From: a bacterium
GTDB taxonomy: Bacteria > Desulfobacterota > Desulfovibrionia > Desulfovibrionales > Desulfovibrionaceae
DNA length: 64,000 nt
NCBI GenBank assembly: GCA_037230945.1
Contig: JAXUUT010000104.1
Location: 26,504-90,503 of the forward strand
Direction: 5' to 3'
The notes beneath the pieces were generated by a model. The model was not told where the DNA came from. It saw nothing but the letters and a program-made list of their open reading frames with translations, and made no database searches. The position numbers were made by a program, and so were the translations under genes. Positions 10,647 through 48,042 of this stretch are shown piece after piece (the stretch's first letter is position 1; the number at the start of each line of letters is the position of its first letter).

Positions 10647-11075
10647 ATGAAATATCTGGCCATAGACTACGGGCTCAAGCGGGTGGGCATTGCCGTTTCG
10701 GACATGGACGGCGCCTTTGCCTTTCCCAGGTGCACCTTGAAAAGAGAAACCAAGGCTGCCTTTTTTGCCCAGCTCCTGGAGCTTCTGGACAAAGAACAGG
10801 CAGACGCCATTGTGGTCGGACTGCCCCTGTATACCGACGGAACGGAATGCCTCACTACCGTGCAGGTACGCCATTTCGTGGAGTCCCTGAAGCGGCGCAC
10901 GACGCTGCCCGTATACTGGATGAATGAAGTGCTGAGCAGCGCCGCCGCGGAACACGAACTCTACAACTTCGGCATGGGCTTTCGGGATGTCAAGAAGGTG
11001 GTGGATCAGCAGGCCGCCGTGCTCATTCTCGAGAGCTTTCTGAACCAGCCGGAAGAAAGGAGACTGAGGGCATGA
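10647..11075 (+). CDS. ruvX: Holliday junction resolvase-like / pre-16S rRNA nuclease (YqgF family)
   Basis: MKYLAIDYGLKRVGIAVSD N-terminus, 142 aa, typical YqgF. Confidence 0.9.
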   Translation: MKYLAIDYGLKRVGIAVSDMDGAFAFPRCTLKRETKAAFFAQLLELLDKEQADAIVVGLPLYTDGTECLTTVQVRHFVESLKRRTTLPVYWMNEVLSSAAAEHELYNFGMGFRDVKKVVDQQAAVLILESFLNQPEERRLRA

Positions 11076-12256: not shown

Positions 12257-12288
12257 CCGGGCCGCCAGGCTCCGGGGAGGACTTCCCC

Positions 12289-12384
12289 TTGAAACTTCTC
12301 TCCTCGCTTGTGCTCATGGTCTCCTGTCTTCTGGGACTCGGCGCGTGTCTCGTCATCCTGAAAATGCTGGGATTTTTTGCCTGA
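12289..12384 (+). CDS. Possible 31-aa hydrophobic small protein (TTG start)
   Basis: GGGGAGG Shine-Dalgarno at 12274-12280, 8 nt before the TTG. The peptide is MKLLSSLVLMVSCLLGLGACLVILKMLGFFA. I recognise no homology, so this is a low-confidence call. Confidence 0.25.
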   Translation: MKLLSSLVLMVSCLLGLGACLVILKMLGFFA

Positions 12385-12593
12385 TCCACCGCATGACGCC
12401 GAGGCCTGCACAGCCCCGGAACTGGAACCACGCCAAAGAGGAGCCACAAAAAGTCGCTTTCCGAATGCGGAAAAAAGGTCTGCCCGCCAACAAAAGACGC
12501 CGCGAGACGCCGGCGGGCATTCCCCCTCTCCGCTGAACGACAAAGTCCATGCGCGCCCGGTGGAAGAAAAGGATTCTTCTCCGGAACGTCATG

Positions 12594-12637
12594 AAAAAAC
12601 GGGGCTCCGCCGTCATGCGGAACCCCGTTTTGTGTTT
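12594..12637. terminator. Bidirectional terminator between convergent genes
   Basis: An 11-bp stem with one mismatch (CGGGGCTCCGC / GCGGAACCCCG), an A-run upstream and TTTTGTGTTTT downstream. Confidence 0.6.
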
Positions 12638-12678
12638 TCATGCGAAGGCGTCGCCTGTTTCCGCTTCCCAAGCAGCCA

Positions 12679-13746
12679 TCAGGACATGCCCGCCATGAAC
12701 GCGGGAATCTGGGAAACCAGCGCGAACTCGAGAATATAGAGCGGCAGCAGCGCAAGCACCGTGCGCGACCAGGAAAGGTTGAGCGCGAACTTGCAGCCCA
12801 TGAAGGCCGCCGCCACGAACCAGACGGACGCGATGAGGCTGCCCACCATGGGCACGATGCAGAACACGAGCGGAGCGGCGCTGTAGCACACCACGCGCAG
12901 CGTGGTGGAGAAGTCCGCCCGGTCCGGCTGCACCATGCGTATCATCAGATGATAAAGCCCCGCCAGAATCACCGCCTGAAAAATGGAGAAAAACGGCGTG
13001 ACCAGCAGCATGAGCGGCAGATTCATGCTTTTCATGAGCGCTTCGGCCATGGCCAGCGTCTGCGGATCGGTGGCCGTGCTCGTCAGCTCCTGCAGAGCCT
13101 TCATGGACCAGAGACGTGAGGCAAGCATCTGGAAAAGGCTCAGAAGCACATAAAAAAGAATGGGGCGGACAAGCGAAAAGCTGCAGCGCACATGCCGGAA
13201 GAAGTCCGGCGCGTGGAAGAGCACACCGAGCAGCGTGCGGGAAAAGCTGCCCCAGAACCCGTAATATTCGGGGCTTTCCCAGGGGGCGCCGTCCGGTCGG
13301 CCGTCGTGACGGGAAGCTGGTTCCTCCTGCCCCTCGTCATACTGGCGCACATGCTCGCGCACGCTCTGCCAGCGCTCCCAGAGGCTTTTCGGCCGCTGAG
13401 GGCTCTCCGGCTTCTCTACGTGCGTCTCCTCCTTCTTCTCCGCAGGCTCCTCCCTGTTGAACTGCGGAATCTCGGCTCCGGGAGGAAGCGGGTCATCCCC
13501 TTCCTGTTCCGTGGAAAGATGAGGAACAGCAGGCCTGGGTTCCGCAGCGGGAACGCCCGGCCCCGAGCTCTGAGCGGCTGCAACGTTCTTTTCCGGCTCA
13601 TCGGAAGAAGGCTGCGCTTCCTCCGGCAGGGCGAAATGAAACACGGTGGAGCAGCGCGGACAGGTCACCTTGTATTTCTTTCCGGGCCGTATGGAGGCCG
13701 TGGGCACGTCACGCCTGAAGCGGCAGGAAGGACATTCAATAATCAT
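12679..13746 (-). CDS. Zinc-ribbon (MJ0042-type) / Yip1-domain membrane protein
   Basis: The N-terminus MIIECPSCRFRRDVP...KVTCPRCSTVFHF has two CxxC pairs. A Pro/Glu-rich linker follows, then a C-terminal multi-TM region resembling Yip1/DUF1282. Confidence 0.7.
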   Translation of the reverse strand: MIIECPSCRFRRDVPTASIRPGKKYKVTCPRCSTVFHFALPEEAQPSSDEPEKNVAAAQSSGPGVPAAEPRPAVPHLSTEQEGDDPLPPGAEIPQFNREEPAEKKEETHVEKPESPQRPKSLWERWQSVREHVRQYDEGQEEPASRHDGRPDGAPWESPEYYGFWGSFSRTLLGVLFHAPDFFRHVRCSFSLVRPILFYVLLSLFQMLASRLWSMKALQELTSTATDPQTLAMAEALMKSMNLPLMLLVTPFFSIFQAVILAGLYHLMIRMVQPDRADFSTTLRVVCYSAAPLVFCIVPMVGSLIASVWFVAAAFMGCKFALNLSWSRTVLALLPLYILEFALVSQIPAFMAGMS

Positions 13747-13821
13747 GACAACCTCACAACGTATTTGCTTTCAACAAATATAGACCGGCCGGCCCCTCCG
13801 GGCAAGACGTAAGGCGAGCTT

Positions 13822-14343
13822 TTATCCCTTGAGCAGCATCTGATCGTCCGTCATGCCGAGAGCGCGGAGATGAAGATAGATTTTTGCGGCGGCCAGGGCG
13901 TCGGACGCCGCATTGTGATGATCCAGCTCCAGTCCGAGGTATGCGCACACATCATTGAGGCGATGATGAGGAAGATGAAGCCCCCGTCTCGAGCCCTTGA
14001 CCGTGCAGGCGAAGGGAAGATTCGGCGCTTCCAGCCCGAAGGCCCGGCAGCAGCCGAAAAGAACCCTTCGATCAAAGCTTGCGTTGTGCGCGACCAGAAG
14101 CTGCGCGCCGCCAAGGAAGGCGCGTATGTCCGGCCAAAGTTCGGCGAACGTGGGCTTGTCCTTCAGCATGTCCCAGGTGAGTCCGTGAATTTCGGTAAAG
14201 TACACCCGCGGGCGGGGCGGACGGATGAGGCTGTACCAGTTGGCCGTCACCTGTCCGTCTTCCATGCGGGTCATGCCCAGGGCGCACGCGCTGTCGGCAT
14301 GCTTGTCGGCAGTTTCAAAGTCCAGCGCCACCACGCAGGCCAT
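13822..14343 (-). CDS. DEDDh 3'-5' exonuclease (DnaQ/epsilon-like)
   Basis: Motifs VALDFETAD, VAHNASFDRRVL and HHNAASDALAAA. The ATG at 14343 lies 1 nt after the selB stop (TGAcATG), so I prefer it to the ORF-track start at 14427. Confidence 0.8.
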   Translation of the reverse strand: MACVVALDFETADKHADSACALGMTRMEDGQVTANWYSLIRPPRPRVYFTEIHGLTWDMLKDKPTFAELWPDIRAFLGGAQLLVAHNASFDRRVLFGCCRAFGLEAPNLPFACTVKGSRRGLHLPHHRLNDVCAYLGLELDHHNAASDALAAAKIYLHLRALGMTDDQMLLKG

Positions 14344-14344
14344 G

Positions 14345-16261
14345 TCACGCGCTCCTGCCGCGAAGAACCCGCTTGTCGCCCACGCGCATGGTGAGCTGCT
14401 CCTTGTCGAAGTGCTCGAGCAGGGCAATGCCGTTCTTTCGTGAGATGCCGGAAATGTCGCGGAAATCGCCGGGCGTTATTTCACTGTGTTCCTGAAGGAA
14501 CTGCCGCACCTTTGCCCTGAGCTCGTCCATGACGGAAGAAAGATAATAGAGATCCTCCTTGATCTTCACGAGCGAGCCTTCCGAAACGAGCAGCTTGAAT
14601 ATGGGCTGGGCCTGACGCGCCGTGATGCCGAGCTCGGCAAAGAGCTCGGTATGGTTCGGCGGCATGAGCGGCGAGGCCTCGTGAGCCTTCAAAAGAGCCT
14701 CCTTGAGCGCCTGCTGATCGTCGGCCAGAGACACCTTGTGATCAGGCAGGCGCAGAAGCTCGCCTTCGGCCACGAGTCTGCCCGAACGGATGAGCCTCTC
14801 AAGAACAAAATGCGCCAGCTTGGGCGGCACGCCGGCGCCCATGCCGGCAAGAATGACGCCCTTGGCCATGCCGTGTTCCAGAGGATTCTTCTTGTGGAAG
14901 GCCTCCGTGGCGGCAAGAGCACGATCAAGGAGCCTGTCCAGCCAGGCGGAGGAAATCCAGCAGCGGGCGTCCTTGTCCCAGCACAGGGCGCTGCCTTTGC
15001 CGGACATGGCCTGAAGATGCTTTTCCAGCGACTTCCGGCTGAGATCGGTCAGAATGGAAAGATCGGCCAGCGTTGCGCCGAAGCGTCCGGCAAGCTCGAG
15101 CTGCACGCCGATGCGCGTCTGCTCGTCGGCGTCGGGCAGGGCCATGAGACGCTCCTGCATGGCTTCGTCGATGTGACTGCGCCTTGGCGCGCCGTCCAGC
15201 GGATACAGGATGGAGCCGCCGGCCACGGTGCGCAGGGGCGAAAAGGCCCGCACGATGCATCGGTCGCCGAAAATGCCCGCCACGGGCTCGGAAAAATGCA
15301 CTTCCGCAAGCGCGGTGTCGCCGGGCTCGAGCCTGTCGCGGTCATAGAAGTACAGTCGCGCGGCAAGTTCCCGGGCGCTGTGATGGAAATGCACCTCACC
15401 GCGATGACGCAGTCCCCGGGGCGAGGATTTGAGGCAGGTCAGCTCCACAATCCAGCGCTTCGAGTTCTTCATGGTTCCCACATGGGTGACCACGTCGCCG
15501 CGGCTGATGTCCTCAACGCCGAGGCCGTGCAGATTGAGGGAGATGCGGTGACCGGCCTCGGCCACCTCCTGCGCCTGACCGTGGCTCTGAATGCTGCGGA
15601 TGTGCGAAAGTTTTCCGCTCGGCAGAAGCTCCACCTCGTCGCCGCACTTCGCGGAGCCGGAAACGAGCGTTCCCGTGACCACGGTGCCGTGCCCCTTGAG
15701 GGAAAACACGCGGTCCACGGGCAGACGGAAGAGGTCGGAACGCCTTCTCGGCTGACGGCGGCTTTCCTCGACTATGGCGGCGCGAAGGGCGTCGAGGCCC
15801 TCGCCGGTCACGGAGGACACGGGAAAAATGGGCGCGCCTTCAAGGAAGGTGCCCGTGAGGAACTCCCGCACGTCCTCCTTCGCAAGCTCCAGCATGTCGG
15901 CATCGACCATGTCTGTCTTGGTAAGCGCCACAATGCCGTGCTTCACGCCGAGCAGCGTGCATATTTCCAGATGCTCGCGGGTCTGCGGCATGACGCCCTC
16001 GTCGGCGGAAATGACGAGCAGCACGAAATCTATGCCGGAGGCCCCGGCCACCATGGTGCGCACGAATTTTTCATGGCCCGGCATGTCCACGATGCCCATG
16101 CGCTCCCCGCCGGGAAGATCGGCGTAGGCGAAGCCCAGCTCTATGGTGATGCCGCGGCGCTTCTCTTCACCGAGACGGTCGCAATCTATGCCAGTAAGCG
16201 CCCTGATGAGCGATGTTTTTCCGTGGTCGATGTGACCGGCGGTTCCCATGATGACGGACAT
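14345..16261 (-). CDS. selB: Selenocysteine-specific translation elongation factor
   Basis: GTPase motifs [21 protein letters not shown] and TKTD, plus a long C-terminal winged-helix region. The start [10 protein letters not shown] is at 16261. Confidence 0.92.
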
Positions 16262-16448
16262 GACAGCTCCTGAACGTTCATTTTTCCTGAGAGGAGCACA
16301 GGATACCCGTGCAGGCGCGCGAGGGCAAGAGGCGGAAGACGACGCGACAGGCAAAGGCGACACGGACGTCGGAGGCACGTTTGACTTGACTTGAGGGAAA
16401 AAGTTGCGTAACGGTTCTTAGTTCCAAGTCATAAGAACAGGAAAGACG

Positions 16449-17960
<1,512 letters not shown>

Positions 17961-36632: not shown

Positions 36633-37691
36633 CTACCGGTAATTCTCCAGCAGAAACATGGGCTTGATGGCCACGACTTCGTCGTATTCCGTCTGACTGA
36701 CCTTCACGCTGGAATTGAGAGAGCGGAGCACGGCCTTCATGTCTTCGTAGGCCCCGGAAACCGTCTCGGAACGTCCCTCCCTAATGGAACGGATCATGCG
36801 CGAAAGCGTGGCGGGATGCGCATAGCGGGCAGGCAGAGGGAAATCGGGATAGTCCTTTATGTAGTCCTCCATGTCGGCGCGGGCTCTGTCCAGCGCGGCC
36901 GCTATGGCCCGGCTGTTGTTGCGGGCCGTAGGCAGAACGTTGGCCCCGGCAAAAAAGAACAGCACAGCGAGACCTATGAGCGTGACGTATATGCCGTAGT
37001 CGCCTTCACCGGAAAACCACGTGTACGCACCGTAGGCGGATGCAACGAGGGCAAGACAGAAAATGGCGAGCGCCACCCACTTGTGCACGGGATTAGTCAG
37101 TTGATCGACGCGTCTGGCCTTGCTTGCCGCGGCAAGGCGCGTGGCAAGGTCGGGGCGCTTTTCCAGAAACGCCATGGCGTCGCGAAGCATGGCAAGACTT
37201 TTCTCAGCCTCGGCAGAAAGATGCTTCACATATCTCGCCTCTTCCGCGGCTCTGGCTTCGGCGAGCCTTTTTGCCGCAGCCTCGGACATGGTCTTGATGT
37301 GGGGGAAACGGTGCTGAATTTCGGCAAGCATCATGTCCACATGGCTTTCATGCTTGAACGTGCACTGCACCTTCTCTCCGTTGTCGTATTCCACCACGAG
37401 ATAGGGAATGGAACCGAAGATGCCCTTGCCGGTAAAACCGCCCTTGCTCATGGCCACGCGCTTGTAGGCCCGCTGAATGTTGGAGGCGGGCACATAAAAA
37501 CGGCGCTCCATGAACAGACTGTTCAGATACAGAGCCTTGTGCCCGACGCCGCAGGGACCGAACACGAGACAGGACTTCCGATCGTCCCTGAGCTCCTTGT
37601 CGCCCAGCCCTGCACTGCCGAGTCTGGCTGGTTTGAAATACAGCATCATGCGCTCTCCGGGGAAGTGAATTTCGCACTCGTGCGGCACCAT
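36633..37691 (-). CDS. Hypothetical membrane protein (N-terminal globular domain, coiled coil, 2 TM helices, C-terminal domain)
   Basis: The ORF has coding-like composition and TM segments WVALAIFCLALVASAYGAYTWF and IYVTLIGLAVLFFFAGANVL. I recognise no family. The true start may be Met-15 (37649), which has GGAGAG upstream. Confidence 0.6.
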   Translation of the reverse strand: MVPHECEIHFPGERMMLYFKPARLGSAGLGDKELRDDRKSCLVFGPCGVGHKALYLNSLFMERRFYVPASNIQRAYKRVAMSKGGFTGKGIFGSIPYLVVEYDNGEKVQCTFKHESHVDMMLAEIQHRFPHIKTMSEAAAKRLAEARAAEEARYVKHLSAEAEKSLAMLRDAMAFLEKRPDLATRLAAASKARRVDQLTNPVHKWVALAIFCLALVASAYGAYTWFSGEGDYGIYVTLIGLAVLFFFAGANVLPTARNNSRAIAAALDRARADMEDYIKDYPDFPLPARYAHPATLSRMIRSIREGRSETVSGAYEDMKAVLRSLNSSVKVSQTEYDEVVAIKPMFLLENYR

Positions 37692-37863: not shown

Positions 37864-39312
37864 TCAGGCGCGACGAGCGCGGGTCGCACGCAGGAACAGG
37901 GTCAGGAACAGCGCGGCCACGACCACGCCGATCACATAGGAAACGGCGACGGGCAGCTGCACCACAAGGCCGAGACACTCGGGAGCCATGCAGAAGTAGG
38001 TGCTGGACACGGCGCTCATGAAGGTGGCGGGCACGGCGGTGATCCAGAAGTTCTTCTTGTTGAGGAAGAGGTACATGGAGGCGGCCCACAGCACGATCAT
38101 GGCCAGAGTCTGGTTGGTCCAGCTGAAGTAACGCCACACGATGGTGTAGTCGAGCTGGCTGATGAGAGCACCGGCACCGAGCAGCGGCACGCAGAAGATG
38201 AGACGGTTCTTGTAGCTGGTCTGCGAAACCTTGAACCAGTCGGCCAGCACCAGACGGGCGGAACGGAAGGCCGTGTCGCCGGAGGTGATGGGGCAGGCGA
38301 TGACGCCGACCATGGCAAGGCCGATGCCTATGCCGCCCATGGTCTTGCTGCACACGTCGTAAATGGCGGCGGACTGGCCGGCGGCGAGGCTGGCAAGAAG
38401 ACCGGTGGTCTGACCGTCGGTGATTTCATAGATGGTGCAGCCGGCAGCGGCCCAGATGAGGGCGATGATGCCTTCGCACACCATGGCGCCGTAGAACACG
38501 AAGTGTCCCTGATGTTCGCTCTTCATGCAGCGGGCCATAAGAGGAGACTGCGTGGCATGGAAACCGGAAATGGCGCCGCAGGCCACGGTGATGAACATGA
38601 AGGCCCAGATGGGCGTACCCTTGGGATGCATGTTGGTGAAGTGATCCCAGAGTTCAGGAATCTGATAAGCGGGGTTCACCACGATGCCGGCGCCCACGCC
38701 CACAGCCATGATGATGAGGCAGATGCCGAACACGGGATAGATCTTGCCGATGATCTTGTCGATGGAAATGAAGGTGGCGATGAAGTAATACACCAGCACG
38801 ACCGTCAGCCAGAAGGAAGCGTTCAGCAGAATGCCGGAAGCGCCGGCTTCGCTGCACAGCTTGACGATGAGGCCGGCAGGACCCACCGCAAACACGGTAC
38901 CCACCATGACGAGCAGCACCACGGAGAAGACGCGCATGATGGTCTTCATCGTGGAGCCGAGGTAGATGCCGGTGATTTCGGATACGGAAGCACCGTTGTT
39001 GCGCTCACTGGTCATGCCGGAGAAGAAGTCGTGAACGCCGCCGGCAAAAATGGTGCCGAAGGTGATCCACAAAAACACGACGGGCCCCCAGAGCGCACCC
39101 TGAAGCGCACCGAAAATGGGGCCGAGACCGGCGATGTTCAAAAGCTGAATGAGGAACAGCTTCCACTGAGGAAGCACCACATAGTCGACGCCGTCATTGA
39201 TGACCACGGCGGGAGTCTCCCGGTCGTCCGGACCAAAGGTATTCTCTACCAACTTGCCGTAGGTAAAGTAACCGATGATCAGCAGGGCCAGGCACAGAAA
39301 GAAACTTACCAT
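37864..39312 (-). CDS. cstA: Carbon starvation protein A family transporter (peptide/pyruvate uptake)
   Basis: 482 aa and polytopic, with FGPDDRETPA, HWGLFxxLxNIAGxGPIxG-like LNIAGLGPIFGALQGALWGP, and ACGAISGFHATQSP. Confidence 0.9.
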   Translation of the reverse strand: MVSFFLCLALLIIGYFTYGKLVENTFGPDDRETPAVVINDGVDYVVLPQWKLFLIQLLNIAGLGPIFGALQGALWGPVVFLWITFGTIFAGGVHDFFSGMTSERNNGASVSEITGIYLGSTMKTIMRVFSVVLLVMVGTVFAVGPAGLIVKLCSEAGASGILLNASFWLTVVLVYYFIATFISIDKIIGKIYPVFGICLIIMAVGVGAGIVVNPAYQIPELWDHFTNMHPKGTPIWAFMFITVACGAISGFHATQSPLMARCMKSEHQGHFVFYGAMVCEGIIALIWAAAGCTIYEITDGQTTGLLASLAAGQSAAIYDVCSKTMGGIGIGLAMVGVIACPITSGDTAFRSARLVLADWFKVSQTSYKNRLIFCVPLLGAGALISQLDYTIVWRYFSWTNQTLAMIVLWAASMYLFLNKKNFWITAVPATFMSAVSSTYFCMAPECLGLVVQLPVAVSYVIGVVVAALFLTLFLRATRARRA

Positions 39313-39620: not shown

Positions 39621-40112
39621 TCATGCGTTCCGGAAGGCAAGACGCATCTGATGCCACGCGACATTGCCGTGCGTGGAGGAGGAAAGTCCCTCGTCCTCAA
39701 AGCCGAGGGAAGCATAATAGGGAACAAGTCTCTCCTTGCAGGTGAGCACCACGCCCGCCTTCCCTCTTTTCCGGGCCTCTTCCGTCAGTCGCCTGACGAG
39801 CATGGCGGCATAGCCTCTCCTCCGGAACTCGGGAAGCGTATTGAGTCCGAAAACCATCTGCCAGCGTCCGTCCTTTCTGTGCAGCGAAGCGTCGGCGTAC
39901 ATCTCGTCGCGCAGATCGCGTTCATCCGTGGCCATGCCGTCGATGAAGGATACCAGCCGCCCACCCTCAAACAGCAGCCAGAAACAGTCGGCATAGGCCG
40001 CAAGCCTTTCGCGAAATTCCTCTTCCGTGGCCGCCTCGGCGGCAGGAAAGCAGCGCCGTTCCACCTCGGCTATGGCCGCAAGATCGGCCATGGTCGCATT
40101 TCTTATGAACAT
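39621..40112 (-). CDS. GNAT family N-acetyltransferase
   Basis: MFIRNATMADLAAIAEVERRCFP..., with the acetyl-CoA binding motif RRRGYAAMLVRRL. I used the ATG at 40112, which has GGGAGGA upstream. Confidence 0.85.
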   Translation of the reverse strand: MFIRNATMADLAAIAEVERRCFPAAEAATEEEFRERLAAYADCFWLLFEGGRLVSFIDGMATDERDLRDEMYADASLHRKDGRWQMVFGLNTLPEFRRRGYAAMLVRRLTEEARKRGKAGVVLTCKERLVPYYASLGFEDEGLSSSTHGNVAWHQMRLAFRNA

Positions 40113-40252
40113 GCATCCTCCCGGCTCCTGCAATGAACAATGAGGAGCCGCCTGTTTTTAATCGTCAGACGCTGCGGCGCCGCACAAGGCATCCCGCAAA
40201 CGCCGATGGCAGATTCCGGTTCAGAAAAACGGACGCCCTTCCCCGCCCGGAC

Positions 40253-41314
40253 CTATCTCGCTTCCTCATGCAGGGCGCAGGGAGCCTCAAACCGCTTGGC
40301 GCAGGACACGCAGGCGTCCGGAGGATCGGCCGTCTGCACGGATGCGCGAAAGCTTGCGTATTCCGAATCGGCCCATATGTCTGCAGGGCTTTTCTCCCGC
40401 ACGCAGCCGAAGACCGTGCGGTTCGGCTGCGGCTCCTTGAGCGGCACGTTCAGATACACGCAGGGCGAAACAAGCCCGTCGGCGTCCACGTACAGCGTTC
40501 GATGCGCCCTCTCACGGCAGCACGGTGCGGGCTCCGGCGCGGGAAGCGACGCATAGAAATCGCGGCCCCCGGCTCGAACGCGCGCGCCCACCTCCTCAAG
40601 CACCGCGCGCGCAGCCTCTATCTTGTCCCGTTCATGGGGCGCAAAGGCCTCCTTCGCCATGTCTGGCGAAGGAATGTAGTCCATGGTGCTGATGACCGCC
40701 GCATGCACGCCCCAGTCCTCCATGAGTTCAGGCAGCCCGCGCACGGCCTCCACGTTTGAGGCAAGCATGAGATAGGCCAGATGAATTTCCAGATGCACGG
40801 CATTTTTTTCCCGGCGGATCTTCTGCAGAGTTTTCACGGCGTTCTCCACGCGGGAAAAGGGAATGCCGGCACGGGCCCCGTTGCTCTGCTCGTCCGTGCC
40901 CACCAGAGAAAAGGCCACAATGTCCATGCCGCTTGCCACAATGTCTTCCGCCAGCTTCTCATTCATGACCATGCCGCAGGTCGTCGTGGAGACGGCGCAT
41001 CCGGCTCTGCGGGCAAGCGACACCAAGTCCATGAAATGCGGATTGAGAAAAGGTTCTCCCCAGCCCTGCAGATGCACGCGTCCCGCCCGCGTCATGACGG
41101 GCCAGAGCGCGGCAAAGGTCTCGGCCTCCATGTGTCTGCTCTTCCACACGTCCGCACGCGTGGTGTGCGGGCAGTACACGCACTTTCCCATGCAGCATGA
41201 GGTTACTTCCACCTGCAGACATTCCAGCTCACGCGGCCGAAGAAAGTCGCGCAGATCCTGCAGAATTCCGGGAGCCCGAAACCTTGAGAAAAGCCGTTTG
41301 ACGTCGGTTGCCAT
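40253..41314 (-). CDS. Radical SAM enzyme with a SPASM/twitch-like C-terminal Cys cluster
   Basis: CxxxCxxC motif (CMGKCVYCPH), then GWGEPFLNP. The C-terminal auxiliary-cluster region is PCCRERAHRTLYVDADGLVSPC...FGC...CVSCAKRFEAPC, with a GxxxxC element. The ATG has an AGGAG SD and lies 13 nt after the stop of the upstream gene. Confidence 0.85.
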   Translation of the reverse strand: MATDVKRLFSRFRAPGILQDLRDFLRPRELECLQVEVTSCCMGKCVYCPHTTRADVWKSRHMEAETFAALWPVMTRAGRVHLQGWGEPFLNPHFMDLVSLARRAGCAVSTTTCGMVMNEKLAEDIVASGMDIVAFSLVGTDEQSNGARAGIPFSRVENAVKTLQKIRREKNAVHLEIHLAYLMLASNVEAVRGLPELMEDWGVHAAVISTMDYIPSPDMAKEAFAPHERDKIEAARAVLEEVGARVRAGGRDFYASLPAPEPAPCCRERAHRTLYVDADGLVSPCVYLNVPLKEPQPNRTVFGCVREKSPADIWADSEYASFRASVQTADPPDACVSCAKRFEAPCALHEEAR

Positions 41315-41327
41315 GCATTTTCTCCTG

Positions 41328-44003
41328 CTAGAGCGTCCAGCTCGTTTCCAGATGCGGCATGAGCTCGAAGGCTCCCCACTTCTTCTTGAAGAAGGTGATG
41401 CCGCCGTCTATGCCGAGCCCGAGGTTCAGCACGCTCTGCCCGCGGCGCACGGCCTCGTCTGCAAGCGCCTGCAAAAGCGCGTCGCTCACGCCGGGAGGAC
41501 AGTCGTCCTGCCGGAAGGCAAACATGTAGAAGGCCGTGCAAAGCGCGCTGTAGTCGCCCACGGCCATGGCGAGCAGCCTGCCCGAGGCATTGCGCGCGGC
41601 AAAGAGCACGGCATCCGGCGATGCCTGCACATATGCCCCGACTCTGCCGAAGATGTGCCTGGTTCCGGGGGCGAGCGTACGTACCTTGAGGTAATGATCC
41701 ACCAGCGCGTCGTGTTCCGGTCCCCAGTTCTCCACGGCAACGACGGCTTCCCTCTGCGCACGGCGGAGCATGTTGCGCAGCTTCTGCCCCGGCGTGTGAG
41801 GAAGATTCACGCACCACCACGCGTCGCGCTCCACCACGGCCCTGTCCGGCGCGGCGGCGGGCACGACAGGCGCGAGCACCGTGATTCTGCGAAGGTTCGG
41901 CATGGCAAGCGCGCAGGCAACGGCCTTTCCCAGCCGTTCGTCATACGCCGCGGAGCCGACGGCGCAGAAAGTCTGCTCATCCTGCGCGGGAAAGGCCACC
42001 AGCGTGCAGCTGTCGGCCGTGGTCCAGGCGGCAAAGCCCTCGCACGAACGCAGCGTGCGTCCCGACACCGCTCTCACGTAGGAAGGAATCTGTTCCGGCA
42101 CCACGGCCCTCGCACCGAGATCGGCGAGTCTTCTGCCGGAAGACGGACCGCGGGACGCCACAACCCGTTCCGCGCGTTCTCCGGCGCCTTCCCTGCGCAG
42201 CGCGGACGAGCGCACGTTTTCCGCCGGAGCCTTTTCCCACGCGGGCGCGTCGGGGTTGCCCGGCAGCACCACGGAATCGTCCCTCCGGATCCAGGCGGAG
42301 AATCGGTGCTTCCAGGTCGGCAGCACGCGGGTCACGGTAAAGCCGTCCTCGGACAGCATCTGCCGCAGATTGATCATGTGGGCCGAGCCCACGAACACCG
42401 CCGTTCCTCCCCGCTCGATGTACGGACGCATTCTCTCGCGGAAGCGCTGATCGCGCACGCTGATGATGGTGCCCGTGCGGGTGGGAAATTCTGCGCTCGT
42501 CCCCATCATGCCCATGAGGTCTCCCGCAAGATAGCGGGAACGGTTGCTCTTCATGAGCTTCGGCCAGAAGGAACACTCCTTCATGAATCGTACGATGCGC
42601 TCCATGGGCGCGGACTCAAGCGAAGCTATCTGCTCGGCAAGACTCTCCATGCCCATGACCGACTTGCCCATGTCGAGCGCGACGTCCCACACTTCGAGAT
42701 CCACGGAGTTCGTCCAGCCGTTGCGCTCAAGATACGACGTCCAGAGCGAGAAGAAGGCGTACCACTGACGGCTTTGTGCAAGCACGGCGCGCACGTCGAT
42801 GCGCCGCTCCTGCTGCACGCCGACAAGCCGTGCAAGAAATCCTTCCGGCCCGTAGACCATGCGTTCAAGCCGGACGACGTCCTCTTCGGAAAGAAACTGC
42901 GCCACGCGCGGCGCATCGGGCTCGGGAGAACGGCCGATGCGCGCCACCTCGTCCATGCTGTCGGAATCTATGGGCCCTTCCAGAAGCACGGTGTCCACGT
43001 TTTCAAACAGTCGCCGCAGGGAATGTTCAAAGGAATAGCAGAAGAAGTGTGCGGAGCCGCCTATCCACGACGTGCGTCCGTTCTTGTCGAGGCGCCAGAG
43101 CATGGCGCAGGGACGCTGCTGGGGAAGGGAATCAAAGAACTTCCAGCGCGACATTTCATAGATGCTCGACGAGGAGCCTATGCTTATGGCGAGATACGCC
43201 GCCATGTCGAAAAAGCCGCCGCTGCCCGTGAGACTTGCGGAAGGCTGCCACACGGCAAGCTCATAGGGCGCATCCTTCACGCCGCCCCACTTTTTCTTGA
43301 AGCGGGTTATGCCCTCGTTCACGCCGAGTCCGAGCAGCACGGTGCTCTTTCCCTCGGCCCGGGCCCGCTCCAGCATTTCGGCAAAAAGAAGGTCGGGCGC
43401 GTGCGGGACGTAATGGGTCTTGGAGTGTGCGCCGAGCACATAGCTCACGTGCTCCGGCAGGGAATAGTCCAGCAGAAGACAGGCAGCAAGCTGTCCCTCG
43501 GCGTCCCAGGCGTTGAGCAGCCTGAGATCGGCCTTTCCGCGGAGGGCCGAAGCCGTGCCGGAATAGAGCTGGCGTATGCGCGGAGGAAGCGGAATGCGGG
43601 AGAGAAATTCCGCCCACAGCCGCCTGTGCTCCGGCGAAAACTCCCGCGTTTCATCCACCGTAAGGCGTTCCCCCGCATGCCGCACAGGCCCGCGCAGCTT
43701 TGCGGGTACGGCAGCAGAGGCGGAAAGCGTGTAGTATACGTCGCGATCCTGCACGCAGTCCTTCAGTCTCTCGGGCATCTGCGGCGCTATGGCGAAGCAG
43801 TCGGAAGGCTTGACCCGGCGCAGGGCTTCGTCAAGCGCCTTCTCGAACCTCTGTACGGAAAACTCTCCTTCCAGCGGATAGCCTATGGCCATGAGCCAGT
43901 CGCCGTCCGCGACGAATATGTGACTGTCCAGCTCGAAGGAATGACCTGCCGACAAGGCCTCAAGAAGGGGCCGTGAATGTTCGGGAACGGTGACTGCGGA
44001 CAT
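41328..44003 (-). CDS. 891-aa fusion protein: FemAB/CelD-like GNAT-fold module + TraB/GumN (TIKI-superfamily) domain + second GNAT-fold module
   Basis: The central region has TraB/GumN-type motifs: MLWRLDKNGRTSWIGGSAH, VLLEG, VDLEVWDVALDMGKSVMGMES, YLAGDL and AVFVGSAHM..EDGFTV. Both termini end in LGLG[VI]..GIT.FKKKWG, typical of FemAB/BioF2-like acyltransferase folds. The ATG at 44003 has an AAGGAG SD. The ORF-track start at 44135 is also possible. Confidence 0.8.
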   Translation of the reverse strand: MSAVTVPEHSRPLLEALSAGHSFELDSHIFVADGDWLMAIGYPLEGEFSVQRFEKALDEALRRVKPSDCFAIAPQMPERLKDCVQDRDVYYTLSASAAVPAKLRGPVRHAGERLTVDETREFSPEHRRLWAEFLSRIPLPPRIRQLYSGTASALRGKADLRLLNAWDAEGQLAACLLLDYSLPEHVSYVLGAHSKTHYVPHAPDLLFAEMLERARAEGKSTVLLGLGVNEGITRFKKKWGGVKDAPYELAVWQPSASLTGSGGFFDMAAYLAISIGSSSSIYEMSRWKFFDSLPQQRPCAMLWRLDKNGRTSWIGGSAHFFCYSFEHSLRRLFENVDTVLLEGPIDSDSMDEVARIGRSPEPDAPRVAQFLSEEDVVRLERMVYGPEGFLARLVGVQQERRIDVRAVLAQSRQWYAFFSLWTSYLERNGWTNSVDLEVWDVALDMGKSVMGMESLAEQIASLESAPMERIVRFMKECSFWPKLMKSNRSRYLAGDLMGMMGTSAEFPTRTGTIISVRDQRFRERMRPYIERGGTAVFVGSAHMINLRQMLSEDGFTVTRVLPTWKHRFSAWIRRDDSVVLPGNPDAPAWEKAPAENVRSSALRREGAGERAERVVASRGPSSGRRLADLGARAVVPEQIPSYVRAVSGRTLRSCEGFAAWTTADSCTLVAFPAQDEQTFCAVGSAAYDERLGKAVACALAMPNLRRITVLAPVVPAAAPDRAVVERDAWWCVNLPHTPGQKLRNMLRRAQREAVVAVENWGPEHDALVDHYLKVRTLAPGTRHIFGRVGAYVQASPDAVLFAARNASGRLLAMAVGDYSALCTAFYMFAFRQDDCPPGVSDALLQALADEAVRRGQSVLNLGLGIDGGITFFKKKWGAFELMPHLETSWTL

Positions 44004-44218
44004 GAGAGACTCCTTGGCACGCTTGTGAGGAATATGCCATATCCATGCCGGACGGTAAAGAAGACCCTGCTGCCGCCCGTCTGCAGCGCCGTACCGCAAA
44101 CGACGCAACGCCGGACAGGCCGCCCCAGGCGTCATGCCCGGGATTGCCGAGGGAAACTTTCTGTTATAGGGTATCCGGATATCCCTTTGTTTCCCTTAAA
44201 AATTTTTTTGGTGTCTTC

Positions 44219-45031
44219 ATGACAAGCTTCCTTCAGATCGTGCTCATACTCGTCTGCGGCGGTTCGCTCGTCGGTCTTCTGTCCGGCATGTTCGGCGTGG
44301 GCGGAGCCTTCATCATCGTGCCGCTTTTGAACATTCTCTTCACGCAGATGGGCATTTCACAGGACATCGTGCAGCATCTGGCCGTGGGTACCGCGCCTTC
44401 GACCATGCTCATCACCTCCCTGACCACCTTCATCGCGCACACGCGCATGGGCTCCATGCGCTGGGACGTCTGGAGAATCATGCTTCCCGGCATCATCGTG
44501 GGCGCAGTCTCCGGCGCGCTTCTGGCCCATCACGTCAACGGCCGCACGCTCGAAGCGCTCTTCGGCGTCATTCTCCTGATCATATCCTCGCAGATGTTCA
44601 TCGGACGCACCCCGCGCCCCAACGAAAAAATGAAGAAGTTTTATGTGCCGGTCAGTCTGTTCGTGGGCATGATCGCCAGCATGACCGGCGTGGCGGGTTC
44701 CATGCAGATCATCATCTTTCTCGTGTGGGCCGGTCACGACTGGTGCGACAGCGTGAGCACGGCTGCCGCCCTCACGCTGCCCATATCGCTCACGGCCACC
44801 ATAAGCTATGCAATCCTCGGCTGGAATCAGCCGGGGCTTCCCGAATGGTCTCTCGGCTATGTCTATTTTCCCGGCACGCTTTCGCTCATGATCCCAGGCG
44901 TCATCATGGCCGTGGTGGGGGCAAGGCTCGCCCACTGGTCCGGCCTGCCGCTGACGAACCTGAAACGCTTCTTCGCCCTGTTCAGCCTCTTCATCGGCGT
45001 GTCCTCCCTGTATCGGGCTTTCTTCGCCTGA
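44219..45031 (+). CDS. TauE/SafE (DUF81) family anion/sulfite exporter
   Basis: MTSFLQIVLILVCGGSLVGLLSGMFGVGGAFIIVPLL, about 8 TM segments, 270 aa. I used ATG 44219. Confidence 0.8.
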   Translation: MTSFLQIVLILVCGGSLVGLLSGMFGVGGAFIIVPLLNILFTQMGISQDIVQHLAVGTAPSTMLITSLTTFIAHTRMGSMRWDVWRIMLPGIIVGAVSGALLAHHVNGRTLEALFGVILLIISSQMFIGRTPRPNEKMKKFYVPVSLFVGMIASMTGVAGSMQIIIFLVWAGHDWCDSVSTAAALTLPISLTATISYAILGWNQPGLPEWSLGYVYFPGTLSLMIPGVIMAVVGARLAHWSGLPLTNLKRFFALFSLFIGVSSLYRAFFA

Positions 45032-45185
45032 TGCGGCACGGAACGCCGCGCTGCCCTTCTGTTCAAGACTTTTTTCTCATGGTTCTGACATATTGCCTTT
45101 TTTGAAAGGCCGTCTACAGTTACCCGCAGAAGCACGGCGTGCCTCAGGCCCGCCGCTCCCCACTCCGCAAGAAAACGAGGTTCCC

Positions 45186-46694
45186 ATGTTTGAAACAGTC
45201 GTACTTGGCAGACGTTGCAGCGACAGGGAATACAAGGAACAGGCCCCGGATCTGCGCATGAAGTTTTTTGAGGCGCAACGGCAGTGCATGGACCGCAAGA
45301 TTCCTCTGCTCATCATCATAGCCGGCATAGACGGCGCAGGCCGCGGCGCGGTCATCAACCTGCTGTCGGAGTGGATGGACAGCAAGCACGTGCACAACCA
45401 TGTGTTCTGGATGGAAACCGACGAGGAGCGTGAACGCCCCGAAGACTGGCGCTACTGGCGCAGGCTCCCGGAGGCCGGAAGCGTGGGCGTATTTTTCGGC
45501 GGATGGTACGGCCTTGCCATGCGCAAGTTCAGCTCGGGCGACATGAGCGAGATGGCCTTCAGCTCCCACATGCATCACTGCCGCGGACTTGAGGAAAGTC
45601 TCGCCGCTTCGGGCATGGCCATAGCCAAGATATGGCTGCACCTCGACCGGAAAGAGCATGAAAAACGGCTCAAGAAGCGTCTGGCACACAAGGAAGTGCT
45701 TCATTTCACGCCCTACGACAAAAAGGCCTCCGAAAATTACGACGGCCTTGCCAGCGCCGCGGCACGAGCCATCACGCTGACCGACCGTGCCTTCGCCCCC
45801 TGGACCGTCGTTGACGCGGCGGACGCAAACTACCGCAATCTTGCCGTGGCAAAGGCCGTCATCGCCACGGTGGAGCGCGCCGTTGCCGGACAGGAGGCCA
45901 GAAAGGCCCGTCTTGCAGAAAAAGCCGCCGCGCCGCAAAACGTCATTTCCACGCTGGATGCCATAGACCTGAGCGCAAAGGCAGATCCTGATACCTACAA
46001 AAAGGATCTGGCCGATCTGCAGACCGAGCTGCATGAACTCACCTACCACGCCTGGCGCAAGGGAATTTCGAGCACGCTCGTGTTCGAGGGCTGGGACGCC
46101 TCGGGCAAGGGCGGCAGCATACGACGCCTCATGGACGGCATAGACGCCCGCATAAGCCGGGCCATTCCCATAGGCGTTCCGTCCGACGAAGAGCTGGCTC
46201 ATCACTACCTGTGGCGCTTCTGGCGACATGTGCCCCGTGCCGGATTCATCACGGTGTACGACCGCTCCTGGTACGGCCGCGTGCTGGTGGAACGCGTGGA
46301 AGGGCTTACGCCTCAGGAGGACTGGAGCCGGGCCTACTCGGAAATCAATCTTTTTGAGGAACAGCTCATAAATCAGGGCAACGTGCTTCTGAAATTCTGG
46401 CTGCACATTTCCCCGGACGAGCAGCTGCGCCGCTTCAAGGAACGGGAGTCGACGCCGTGGAAGCAGTACAAGATCACGCCCGACGACTGGCGCAACAGAG
46501 AAAAATGGCCGGAATACGTGCTTGCCGCCGACGAAATGTTCCTTCGGACCAGCACGGACTACGCGCCATGGCACATCATTCCCGCGGAAGACAAGAAATA
46601 CGCCAGACTTTCGGTACTGCGCACCTATCGTGACGCGCTGAAGAAGGCCCTGAAGCAGGCCGACGGGAAAAAGGACGGCCGCGACAAGAAATAG
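45186..46694 (+). CDS. Two-domain polyphosphate kinase 2 (polyphosphate:AMP phosphotransferase type)
   Basis: Two PPK2 repeats. The N-terminal repeat has a degenerate P-loop (GIDGAGRG); the C-terminal repeat has GWDASGKGGSIRRL and DRSWYGRVLVERVEG. I used ATG 45186. Confidence 0.88.
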   Translation: MFETVVLGRRCSDREYKEQAPDLRMKFFEAQRQCMDRKIPLLIIIAGIDGAGRGAVINLLSEWMDSKHVHNHVFWMETDEERERPEDWRYWRRLPEAGSVGVFFGGWYGLAMRKFSSGDMSEMAFSSHMHHCRGLEESLAASGMAIAKIWLHLDRKEHEKRLKKRLAHKEVLHFTPYDKKASENYDGLASAAARAITLTDRAFAPWTVVDAADANYRNLAVAKAVIATVERAVAGQEARKARLAEKAAAPQNVISTLDAIDLSAKADPDTYKKDLADLQTELHELTYHAWRKGISSTLVFEGWDASGKGGSIRRLMDGIDARISRAIPIGVPSDEELAHHYLWRFWRHVPRAGFITVYDRSWYGRVLVERVEGLTPQEDWSRAYSEINLFEEQLINQGNVLLKFWLHISPDEQLRRFKERESTPWKQYKITPDDWRNREKWPEYVLAADEMFLRTSTDYAPWHIIPAEDKKYARLSVLRTYRDALKKALKQADGKKDGRDKK

Positions 46695-46854: not shown

Positions 46855-48042
46855 ATGCCCGAACTCTCTCATGAAAAAAAACTTCTCCTGGATGAAATCC
46901 AAAATCTGTCCGACCAGATGAGGGAAACAGCCTCCGCCATCTTTGCCGAACCGGAGCTGGGATATCAGGAATTCAAGTCTTCCGCCCGTCTTGCCGACCT
47001 TCTCGAGTCAAACGGCTTCAAGGTGGAACGCAACCTGCTTGACATGCCCACGGCCTTCCACGCCAGTTTCGGTTCCGGAGAAGGACCGCAGGTAGCGTTT
47101 CTTGCCGAGTTCGACGCGCTTCCCGGCCTCGGGCACGCCTGCGGGCACAATCTTTTCGGCACGGCAGCCTGCGGCGCCGCCGTGGCGCTTGCCCGTCATC
47201 TTCCCGCCGGAACCGTGCACGTGTTCGGCACACCCGCCGAGGAAGGCAACGTCAGAGACGCTGGCGGCAAGGTTCCCATGGCCGACGCCGGCCTCTTCGA
47301 CAACATGGACGCCGTCATTGCCGCCCATGCCGAAGGACGCACCATTCTCAAGCAGCAGCTCATTTCCCGCGCCAATCTTGAAATGGACTTCAAGGGCAAG
47401 GCCGCCCATGCCGCCGGCGCTCCGGAAAAGGGCATCAACGCCATGGACGCCGCGGCCCTTGCCGTCATGGGCATCAACAGCCTGCGCCAGCACATGACCC
47501 GCGACGTGCGCATTCACGGCCTGCTCACCGACACCGGCACCTCCATCAACACCATTCCCGAGTTCGCCCGTCTGCGCTACGGCGTGCGCGCCCGCAAGCC
47601 GGAAACGCTCAACAACGCCATCGAACGCGTGGTCAACTGCGCGCGCTGCTGCGCCATGGCCCTCGGCTGCCAGTTCTCCTATCGCCATTCCGCACATCCC
47701 TACTACACCATGCGCCACAATATGCCTCTGCTGCACGCCTTTGCCGCCAACCTTGACCTGCTCGGAGAGGACTACATCGAAGAAGTGCAGAGCAGCTATT
47801 CCACCGACATGGGCAACGTCAGCTTCAAGGCTCCTTCCATCCATCCCTACATTTCCATCGGCGGAGCGCACCTTGTGGGCCACACGCCCGAATTCGCCGA
47901 GGCCTGCAACGGCGAAGGCGGCTTCAAGGGGATGATCCTCGCCGCAAAATCCATGTGCCTGACCGGATTCGACGTGCTCACCAATGAAGAGCTCCGCAAG
48001 GCTGCGCGCAAGGCGTTTGAAACGCTTGACGACTTCGACTGA
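46855..48042 (+). CDS. M20 family amidohydrolase (AbgB / aminoacylase-like)
   Basis: GHACGHNLFG, FGTPAEEG, and a dimerisation-lid region. It is followed by an AbgT-family transporter. Confidence 0.8.
   Translation: MPELSHEKKLLLDEIQNLSDQMRETASAIFAEPELGYQEFKSSARLADLLESNGFKVERNLLDMPTAFHASFGSGEGPQVAFLAEFDALPGLGHACGHNLFGTAACGAAVALARHLPAGTVHVFGTPAEEGNVRDAGGKVPMADAGLFDNMDAVIAAHAEGRTILKQQLISRANLEMDFKGKAAHAAGAPEKGINAMDAAALAVMGINSLRQHMTRDVRIHGLLTDTGTSINTIPEFARLRYGVRARKPETLNNAIERVVNCARCCAMALGCQFSYRHSAHPYYTMRHNMPLLHAFAANLDLLGEDYIEEVQSSYSTDMGNVSFKAPSIHPYISIGGAHLVGHTPEFAEACNGEGGFKGMILAAKSMCLTGFDVLTNEELRKAARKAFETLDDFD

Follow-up and report, generated by a model that had tools for sequence, protein, structure and literature searches.

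What do the three genes between cstA and a divergently transcribed TauE/SafE gene encode in a member of the Desulfovibrionaceae, and do they form one system? They lie in a stretch of 64,000 nucleotides (nt) (contig JAXUUT010000104.1 of assembly GCA_037230945.1, forward-strand positions 26,504 to 90,503), which I call the window, and all positions below count from its first letter. The initial annotation had proposed an undescribed module of three genes at this place, encoding a protein in which a TraB-type hydrolase domain stands between GNAT-like parts, a radical SAM enzyme and a small GNAT acetyltransferase. The layout it described is confirmed: three open reading frames (ORFs), all on the minus strand and separated by gaps of 13 and 140 nt, are flanked by cstA (37864-39312) and the divergent TauE/SafE gene (44219-45031), and Pfam bears out the domain calls of all genes. 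The module itself has to be redrawn, as the fusion gene and the radical SAM gene are conserved, linked and apparently undescribed, whereas the small GNAT gene accompanies them in 13 Mailhella loci only. In this study I show that the three domains of the fusion protein (A, T and B) and the radical SAM enzyme (R) are a conserved, co-inherited and repeatedly fused set without an adjacent conserved substrate gene. In the window, the parts of this set are located as follows.

41328 to 44003, minus strand: A-T-B fusion gene, 891 amino acids (aa), from the ORF and its start codon, Pfam, AlphaFold and orthologues in 80 genome loci.
43236 to 44003, minus strand: domain A, residues 1-256, a tandem-GNAT domain like FemX and the MprF C-domain (Foldseek, conserved motifs, stand-alone gene elsewhere).
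42234 to 43121, minus strand: domain T, residues about 295-590, of the TIKI/TraB/PrgY/GumN hydrolase family (PF01963, invariant His/Glu/His).
41331 to 42170, minus strand: domain B, residues 612-891, paralogue of A (hhalign; separate gene outside the Mailhella clade).
40253 to 41314, minus strand: radical SAM enzyme R, 353 aa, with a twitch-like truncated SPASM C-terminus (Pfam, cysteines, AlphaFold, Foldseek).

The fusion gene most likely starts with the ATG at 44003, which has AAGGAG just 5' of it and yields the product of 891 aa; the upstream limit of the ORF, 44135, is probably not its start. The stop codon, TAG, occupies 41328-41330, and the 13 nt between it and the ATG of the radical SAM gene (41314) contain AGGAG.

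How far does this arrangement reach beyond the window? A scan of one genome per GTDB species gave 276 relatives, and the best 80 loci were kept (loci are cited by their L numbers) and compared by tblastn with the domains of the window. The closest homologues are from Mailhella (Desulfovibrionaceae). Conservation of the gene pair across genomes had been named in the initial annotation as the test that its proposal had to face, and the pair is kept, in the order A plus TraB domain, B, radical SAM and on one strand, in 59 of the 62 loci whose downstream sequence extends for 1.3 kilobases (kb) or more. The loci cover Mailhella, Desulfovibrio, Bilophila, Desulfobacterales, Desulfatibacillum and Syntrophobacteraceae, with Desulfovibrio piger ATCC 29098 (L038) and Bilophila wadsworthia ATCC 49260 (L034) as cultured carriers, and the three exceptions in gene order (L060, L073, L074) are one related lineage. 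Outside the Mailhella clade, B is a gene of its own of about 285 aa, translationally coupled to the A-TraB gene through overlapping stop and start codons, with the radical SAM gene close behind. A-TraB and B are fused in all 23 Mailhella-clade loci that have both parts and split in the other 50; the 891-aa protein is a gene fusion, because its C-terminal part is a separate gene outside this clade.

An exhaustive HMMER search over 1.84 billion representative proteins returned 559 matches at E<=1e-3 and 177 at E<=1e-30. The matches comprise A-T-B and A-T proteins, stand-alone A, T and B proteins (each about 270-300 aa), and fusions of B with the radical SAM enzyme (P0294, 633 aa, and P0315, 615 aa), in which the CxxxCxxC motif is located after the B domain. 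The fusions are of three kinds, A-TraB, A-TraB-B in the Mailhella clade, and B-radical SAM. The stand-alone T proteins are from Thermodesulfovibrio and Thermodesulfovibrionaceae, and in Thermodesulfovibrio-like contigs the parts are encoded singly, by four genes that stand as A-T-B-R or B-A-T-R. An independent scan of Joint Genome Institute (JGI) metagenomes anchored on stand-alone T gave 80 loci, in which A-T adjacency is nearly universal and the order A-T-B-R predominates. All named carriers are sulfate or sulfite reducers of the dsr type (Desulfobacterota, Thermodesulfovibrio-type). The three independent kinds of fusion and the order kept in lineages of sulfate and sulfite reducers argue strongly for a joint action of the four modules, probably in contact.

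A precursor peptide was sought as well, and no small ORF within 600 nt of the module is kept across genera; small ORFs that clustered within Mailhella, as candidates for a hidden precursor, are out-of-frame shadows of known genes. Clustering of the flanking ORFs revealed no further conserved neighbour, as the flanks consist mostly of unrelated housekeeping genes (polA, arg genes, rplM), and in a Pfam tally of the 376 neighbouring ORFs within 4 kb, in 58 non-Mailhella loci, no family occurs in more than about 8 loci. Three related Desulfovibrionaceae metagenome-assembled genomes have, just downstream of the radical SAM gene, a gene for a cysteine-rich protein of 87 aa (…CNDCDRIREFEGEQFCSSYPIPERKWVGGRCNFATH…; L041 5648-5911, L044 9469-9732, and about 130 nt after the radical SAM gene in L055), and in L042 its gene is 4 kb away from the radical SAM gene. 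This protein could be a lineage-specific partner or a mere neighbour.

Which chemistry could such a set carry out? The AlphaFold model of the fusion protein (mean predicted local distance difference test, pLDDT, 85; predicted template modelling score 0.64) has three confident domains and low-confidence or disordered linkers. A and B are each built of two GNAT halves, of which the first is degenerate, and judged by their hhalign alignment (probability 99.9, E=1e-32, 26% identity, 250 columns) they are paralogues along their whole length. In the fusion protein, Acetyltransf_6 passes the Pfam cut-off (E=3e-8) and LPG_synthase_C scores weakly, at 17 bits against 27.5; in the family, the former model is found in 51 of the 58 members and the latter in 28 (E<=0.01). 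With Foldseek, the fusion model is closest to the L-PGS and A-PGS domains of MprF, to FemX, to the peptide synthases Sba18/Sbb17 of streptothricin-type pathways and to the DUF2156 protein 2hqy, with E=6e-8 to 1e-6, and tandem GNATs that depend on coenzyme A (CoA), namely 4ius, VipF, 2wpw, NMT and Eis2, rank next with E-values about 10- to 100-fold weaker. At the sequence level, the profile of the full fusion protein matches no solved structure, and no NCBIfam model matches the protein.

The conserved motifs of domain A are VPEH, KLRxxxxRA, HRRLW and LGLGVNEGIxRFKxKWGG, with F235-K236 invariant. Both paralogues share, in all sampled lineages (by name Desulfobacterota and Thermodesulfovibrio), an N-terminal (V/I)PE(H/Q), the basic helix KLRxxxxRA, H126, SD(L/A)L and LGLG(V/I)xxG(I/V)xxFKxKWG; the Phe-Lys dyad is invariant in A, while B has it with few exceptions. 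In FemX, MprF and Ate1, an aromatic-Lys dyad near the C-terminus holds the essential catalytic lysine, and a basic helix binds tRNA (PMC9351520); the essential dyad of FemX is Phe304-Lys305 (PMC9351520). The Phe-Lys dyad and the KLRxxxxRA helix of A and B appear comparable to the dyad and the tRNA-binding helix of FemX, with an equivalence of F235-K236 in A, and of the near-invariant FK in B, to Phe304-Lys305 at motif level only. The acetyl-CoA pyrophosphate-binding motif Q/RxxGxG/A, expected after strand beta-4, is absent from A (…GAHSKTHYVPHAPD…) and from B (…FAFRQDDCPPGVSD…), in contrast to the small GNAT of the same locus, in which it is present as RRRGYA.

The likeness of A and B to the MprF C-domain, FemX and Sba18/Sbb17 extends over fold, Pfam signals, a GxxxFKxK(F/W) segment with its Phe-Lys, the basic helix and the missing CoA motif, and by this last feature they differ from the acetyl-CoA GNATs. 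However, they match none of these systems in full. Unlike MprF, the module has no membrane domain, and in the fusion protein and the radical SAM enzyme no 19-residue window has a Kyte-Doolittle value above 1.6, i.e. no transmembrane segment is present. The MprF-type DUF2156 domain is the best match at the level of the fold, whereas the Pfam score of the window protein stays under the gathering value, and the FemAB family model PF02388 is found in only 1 of the 58 members (E=0.0095). From the tRNA-dependent transferases as a whole, the module differs in having two paralogous copies of about 250 aa that are accompanied by a TraB hydrolase and a radical SAM enzyme. In L089 (7528-7968) and L090 (1455-1895), a stand-alone AlaX-like tRNA-editing gene (Pfam tRNA_SAD) lies directly upstream of A; as a pointer from a single lineage toward an aminoacyl-tRNA link, this is a weak hint.

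Domain T has a Pfam PF01963 (TraB_PrgY_gumN) score of 102 bits against a cut-off of 26.8 (E=7e-29) over profile positions 1-263 of 263, and this family is found in all 58 members. Its motifs are GxAH319, E342-G-P and GxAH542, in which H319, E342 and H542 are invariant in 58 sequences, and the same residues in the stand-alone orthologues (H31, E54 and H259) are invariant as well (n=24). In the TIKI superfamily, these His and Glu residues hydrolyse peptide bonds, as in TIKI and RRSP, or esters, as in the erythromycin esterases (PMC6254334). The retention of the putative catalytic His/Glu set fits this superfamily, and with full-length PF01963, the two GxxH motifs and the Glu, T resembles the TIKI Wnt protease, the MARTX effector RRSP and the erythromycin esterases alike. 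It differs from them as a cytoplasmic domain with no signal peptide or membrane anchor, fused or adjacent to aminoacyl-transferase-like domains, and the first Glu of the '2His/2Glu' set of RRSP is Ser or Thr in T.

The radical SAM enzyme is recognized by Pfam as Radical_SAM plus SPASM. Its CX3CX2C motif lies at C41/45/48, and in the C-terminal extension C266, C285, C335 and C338 are invariant among 37 orthologues, in the arrangement C266-X13-G-X4-C285 … C335-X2-C338. The remaining C-terminal cysteines of the window protein vary among these orthologues, so that the full seven-cysteine SPASM set is not present. A single auxiliary cluster in the C-terminal extension defines the twitch subclass (PMC9012708), and the four cysteines fit a twitch domain with one auxiliary cluster better than a full SPASM domain. 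With about 350 aa, four C-terminal cysteines and no peptide-recognition domain, the enzyme resembles twitch and short-SPASM enzymes such as BtrN, BlsE, DesII and MoaA; it differs from them in that its C-terminus is still scored as SPASM by Pfam. In the AlphaFold model (pLDDT 93), the N-terminus is only a short helix. Neither an RRE nor a PqqD-like domain was found in the protein, nor a gene for one in the operon, and with the first cluster cysteine already at residue 41 of 353, the N-terminus is too short to hold an RRE.

Foldseek places the enzyme near the small-molecule enzymes BlsE, DesII, BtrN and viperin. The best sequence match in the PDB is PqqE, and identity to any solved enzyme is 13-19%. 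In NCBIfam, the protein aligns end to end with TIGR04317 (tungsten cofactor oxidoreductase radical SAM maturase; 125.5 bits against a cut-off of 380) and with TIGR04311 (putative metalloenzyme maturase, Geobacter type; 114 against 400). As these scores are far under the cut-offs, the enzyme is from a sister family rather than a member, and the aldehyde:ferredoxin oxidoreductase family is not among the listed neighbour families. As to defence, PADLOC gives no match for the fusion protein, and the radical SAM enzyme has only the generic similarity of radical SAM enzymes to viperin, so that a defence system was rejected.

The initial annotation had called the radical SAM enzyme one of the maturase type. 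A reading as a maturase of the kind known from peptides that are made by the ribosome and modified after translation (RiPPs) is unsupported, because there is no RRE, no conserved precursor gene, and four C-terminal cysteines only. The cassettes for pyrroloquinoline quinone (PQQ; PqqA/D/E/F) and mycofactocin (MftA/B/C/E) likewise encode a SPASM-type radical SAM enzyme together with a hydrolase; however, the module has no precursor gene, no PqqD or RRE and no complete set of SPASM cysteines, and its two aminoacyl-transferase-like domains have no counterpart in these cassettes. The misfit to RiPP, Fem and Mpr systems that had been noticed at first sight does hold by feature tests. Every domain is from a known superfamily, and the set fails the defining features of all systems considered. 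Full-text literature searches found no description of the operon, and NCBIfam has no model for the fusion protein. Put conservatively, I class the set as a putative biosynthetic or maturation cassette, in which a hydrolase and a radical SAM enzyme are joined to the fold of tRNA-dependent transferases.

Do the surroundings of the module tell more about its role? The context clues point to a link with the handling of sulfur anions. Putative sulfur-anion transporters of three unrelated families, TauE, YeeE/TsuA-like and YeiH-like, adjoin the module, and the top neighbour families in the 58 non-Mailhella loci include the YeiH-like 'putative sulfate exporter' PF03601, Sulf_transp and TauE. PF03601 genes are located 1-2 kb upstream of the module in L062, L068, L074 and L077 and 3-4 kb upstream in L075 (Desulfobacterales/Syntrophobacteraceae), and YeeE/TsuA-like genes adjoin it in three Desulfobacterales loci. 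Collapsing near-identical metagenome loci left 62 groups. Among the 28 groups with 4 kb of flank or more, 12 have PF03601 no farther than 3 kb from the module, often at a spacing of 50-600 nt, and among the 15 groups with at least 3 kb on both sides this holds for 7. TauE itself, which had been linked to the module from the window, is not conserved: genes similar to that of the window occur in 8 Mailhella loci, TauE genes are found in only 2 other Desulfovibrionaceae loci, and TauE is missing from 5 of the 13 closest loci. However, since transporters of three unrelated families recur, also in other clades, the idea of a linked transporter has some basis.

In five loci (L087, L088, L099, L130, L141), dsrA-dsrB are found just past the YeiH-like transporter gene, and then dsrD, dsrN and dsrC where the locus reaches. 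In this Thermodesulfovibrio-like lineage (L087 at 10823-15914, L088 at 11820-17959, and the other three loci), the module consists of four separate genes, after which come an oppositely oriented YeiH-like gene and then dsrA-dsrB. DsrE-like, TusA and rhodanese genes are near the module in L089 and L091, as are rhodanese genes in L114, L154 and L157, and downstream in L135 there is a YeeE/YedE-like transporter (NCBIfam) with ORFs judged DsrE-like by eye only. A different arrangement, confined to L087 (3959-6745), is found just upstream of the module and consists of genes for a 2-hydroxyacid dehydrogenase, a 324-aa protein without Pfam match and ComA (phosphosulfolactate synthase).

I tentatively favour, at somewhat less than even confidence, a self-contained soluble system of four modules, in which A and B act on a metabolite with the help of tRNA, T hydrolyses, R contributes a radical step, and a transporter serves the pathway. 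By analogy to FemX, the MprF C-domain and Sbb17, A and B would be non-CoA transferases that use aminoacyl-tRNA, each placing an aminoacyl group on the amine or hydroxyl of an acceptor; this acceptor would be encoded or made elsewhere and is most probably a small metabolite. T would be an active hydrolase of the TIKI/erythromycin-esterase type, cutting an ester or amide of the intermediate for trimming, release or proofreading. R, as a radical SAM enzyme with one auxiliary cluster, would carry out an oxidative or bond-forming step comparable to those of BtrN, BlsE and DesII. The adjoining transporter of the sulfur-anion type probably moves the product or a substrate, which would tie the system to sulfur metabolism.

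Several observations weigh against this proposal. The case for an aminoacyl-tRNA donor is a resemblance in fold and motif only. The template modelling scores against known transferases are modest, at about 0.5-0.57 of target length, the Foldseek query was the whole 891-aa model, and its output is silent on which domain matched; the best PDB sequence match of the A/B profile, the DUF2156 protein 5vrv, is insignificant (E=0.4). The fold of R is as close to the peptide maturases SkfB, CteB, SuiB and PqqE as to the small-molecule enzymes, and its best curated models are putative metalloenzyme maturases (TIGR04317, TIGR04311). The characterised proteases of the TIKI family all act on proteins. The association with transporters is found in a minority of loci that are phylogenetically non-independent, and was not compared with a genome-wide background, and in most Desulfovibrionaceae loci unrelated housekeeping genes flank the module. 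Finally, R does not adjoin A-T-B in L060, L073, L085, L093, L107 and L142, and R and T are found without A or B in L135, L156 and L162-L164, which means that the four parts may not form a single pathway in every case; T and R may also have a role of their own, apart from A and B. In L135 (7362-10807), and also in L156 and L162-L164, the YeiH-like, radical SAM and TraB genes are co-stranded, with no A or B gene within 6-9 kb.

Alternatively, the target may be a protein or peptide encoded elsewhere. T would then act as an endopeptidase, like TIKI or RRSP, A and B would extend the new terminus or a side chain from aminoacyl-tRNA in the manner of the L/F-transferase, Ate1 or FemX, and R would cross-link or oxidise a residue; the target could be an enzyme of sulfur metabolism. 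I regard this as unlikely, while it deserves to be taken seriously: the characterised TIKI enzymes with this catalytic set cut as site-specific endopeptidases (PMC6254334), N-degron pathways likewise combine a protease and an aminoacyl-tRNA protein transferase (PMC9351520), and the module lies beside dsrABDNC in one lineage. The folds of SkfB, CteB, SuiB and PqqE, the last being the best PDB sequence match, and the nearest curated models, TIGR04317 and TIGR04311 with their putative metalloenzyme maturases, count on the same side. However, no conserved small ORF or candidate target gene adjoins the module in any lineage, the radical SAM enzyme has no RRE or peptide-recognition domain and keeps 4 of the 7 SPASM cysteines, and the commonest neighbours are transporters of small anions, not proteins that look like substrates.

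A further possibility is that A and B do without tRNA altogether, as N-acyltransferases that use acyl-CoA or acyl carrier protein, or as non-catalytic scaffolds; an N-acylated compound would be made or recycled, with T as the deacylase. MshD, Eis, N-myristoyltransferase and the clavulanate tandem GNAT are precedents for tandem GNATs of this sort, CoA-dependent tandem GNATs are only about 10- to 100-fold weaker in Foldseek, the donor cannot be identified by fold alone, and the NCBI label of the protein is 'GNAT family N-acetyltransferase'. I nevertheless consider this decidedly unlikely, as Q/RxxGxG/A is missing in A and B and present in the neighbouring true GNAT, the best folds and both Pfam families belong to the aminoacyl-tRNA-dependent branch, and A without exception, and B with few exceptions, keep the Phe-Lys dyad that is typical of this branch.

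The module as it had first been drawn, an operon of the fusion gene, the radical SAM gene and the small GNAT gene whose product would be an N-acetylated amine or peptide, exported by the divergent TauE, fares worse still. The sequence elements and neighbours that bear on it are the following.

44021 to 44041, minus strand: 21-nt promoter- or operator-like motif TATGGCATATTCNTCACAAGC (exact match in 13 Mailhella-clade loci).
40230 to 40249, minus strand: terminator-like hairpin followed by T5, a possible 3' end of the operon (consensus scan).
39621 to 40112, minus strand: small GNAT, 163 aa, like arylalkylamine N-acetyltransferases, a lineage-specific neighbour (Pfam Acetyltransf_1; RRRGYA).
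44219 to 45031, plus strand: TauE/SafE-family permease, divergent neighbour (Pfam TauE, E=8e-40).

The three genes are indeed co-oriented and close together in the window, and the small GNAT (Pfam Acetyltransf_1), whose closest solved structure is serotonin/arylalkylamine N-acetyltransferase (E=2e-10), resembles enzymes that could cap a free amine. It is syntenic with the core in 13 Mailhella loci, and transporters recur beside the module elsewhere. However, these 13 loci (L001-L012 and L018, the closest of the 80) are the only ones with this gene: it is absent from the more distant Mailhella loci L013-L017 and L020, in which cstA directly follows the radical SAM gene, and as a neighbour of the module it was found in no other lineage of the 80 loci. 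Other small GNATs near the module are 3 kb off, on the opposite strand and in a single Desulfovibrio clade. The spacer between the two genes, which in the window extends over 140 nt from the radical SAM stop (first base 40253) to the small GNAT ATG (40112), varies from 57 to 170 nt and is not conserved, a terminator-like site follows the radical SAM gene, and TauE is lacking in 5 of the 13 closest loci. The small GNAT was thus rejected as a third member, being at most a lineage-specific add-on in Mailhella, and I hold the three-gene operon to be quite improbable.

The two regulatory signs pointed out in the initial annotation are present in the window, and neither is retained in the closest relatives. 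The hairpin GGCTCCT(N13)AGGAGCC lies at 40123-40149, one base from the 40122-40148 given there; it lacks a T-run, shares bases with the Shine-Dalgarno sequence of the small GNAT gene, and is already broken in L001 and L002, so that I rejected it as a regulatory element. The palindrome TATCCGGATA at 44172-44181 was rejected as such too, because it is lost in L001, L002, L003 and L018 and is of a size common in the window, which has 82 perfect 10-bp palindromes where about 62 are expected; its occurrence is consistent with chance. The GC-rich hairpin with TTTTT at 40230-40249 (minus strand), 3 nt after the radical SAM stop, is partly conserved in L001 and may be an intrinsic terminator that divides the core operon from the small GNAT gene. 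As the number of terminator-like sites in the region is not above chance (6 against 4.9 expected), this hairpin is suggestive by its position only. The 21-nt motif TATGGCATATTCNTCACAAGC, 18-38 nt upstream of the ATG of the fusion gene, is found identical and at the same position in 13 loci of the Mailhella clade, in spite of divergence in the remainder of the intergenic region, and 0 chance matches are expected in the window. With the upstream CTTTACC it could form a weak sigma-70 or extended -10 promoter, and its TGGCAT…TCACA part looks, loosely, like a sigma-54 site.

Control of aminoacyl-lipids in the manner of MprF, with A and B aminoacylating phosphatidylglycerol or another lipid and T hydrolysing the aminoacyl ester, I consider very improbable. 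Gene pairs of an aminoacyl-phosphatidylglycerol synthase and a hydrolase are known in Pseudomonas and Enterococcus, the best folds are lysyl- and alanyl-phosphatidylglycerol synthase domains, LPG_synthase_C is found in 28 of the 58 members, and enzymes of the TIKI/Ere type do hydrolyse esters. However, the synthase domains of MprF are tethered to the membrane, and no transmembrane or amphipathic anchor was found in any module; the LPG_synthase_C score of the window protein is under the gathering threshold, and the obligatory radical SAM partner has no role in such a scheme. That the genes are chance neighbours with unrelated functions is hardly credible, as this reading is effectively refuted already by the conservation and fusion data, since the order holds across 59 of 62 genome loci and across most of the 80 metagenome loci, and fusions of three independent kinds occur.

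Some observations on the surrounding DNA may be added. The GC content of the module, 0.63, is the same as that of its surroundings and uniform across the region, and horizontal transfer of the module was discarded on this ground. A long plus-strand ORF (40863-43976, 1037 aa) is not a gene: it lies antisense to the fusion gene, and its translation, of low complexity and rich in Arg, Gly and Ala, marks it as a shadow ORF such as GC-rich DNA gives. An Rfam search of the region found no riboswitch or known RNA. Downstream of cstA, a 352-aa protein without Pfam or NCBIfam match is encoded at 36633-37691 (minus strand), and the pair of cstA and this gene recurs, with 70-100% identity, in most of those Mailhella-clade loci whose sequence reaches it. 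On the other side, the TauE gene is followed at 45093-46694 (plus strand) by a gene for a two-domain PPK2, a polyphosphate:AMP phosphotransferase (TIGR03708, 610 bits, above cut-off), and at 46855-48042 (plus strand) by an ORF of 395 aa that is M20-type amidohydrolase-like, judged by eye only. Where a Mailhella locus has no TauE, the PPK2 gene adjoins the module directly on its upstream side.

What, then, could the set mean for its carriers? A-T-B-R may be an unrecognised, lineage-restricted pathway of dissimilatory sulfur metabolism, which would draw on charged tRNAs outside translation, on a TIKI-type hydrolase and on a radical SAM enzyme, a proposal that I regard as possible and on balance rather doubtful. 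Such a pathway could lead to a new aminoacyl-derived cofactor or a low-molecular-weight sulfur compound, handled by the transporters of the YeiH/YeeE/TauE type, or it could remodel and cross-link the terminus of a protein of sulfur metabolism. If true, this would be a new kind of system and not a variant of Fem, MprF, PQQ or RiPP systems. I know of no described pathway that combines tRNA-dependent transfer, a TIKI-fold hydrolase and a radical SAM enzyme, and if A and B do use aminoacyl-tRNA, they would represent further tRNA chemistry outside translation, coupled to the latter two enzymes. A system of four parts is masked by annotating its proteins, as at present, as 'GNAT family N-acetyltransferase' and as 'TraB/GumN family protein'. 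Sulfate reducers matter for the H2S of the gut (Bilophila, Desulfovibrio, Mailhella), for corrosion and for the global sulfur cycle, and as the biology of their cofactors, thiols and enzyme maturation is partly unexplained, the set described here, which is compact, strongly conserved, confined among named genomes to lineages that reduce sulfate or sulfite, and marked by Rosetta-stone fusions and recurring neighbours of the sulfur-transporter type, is a concrete candidate for a missing function.

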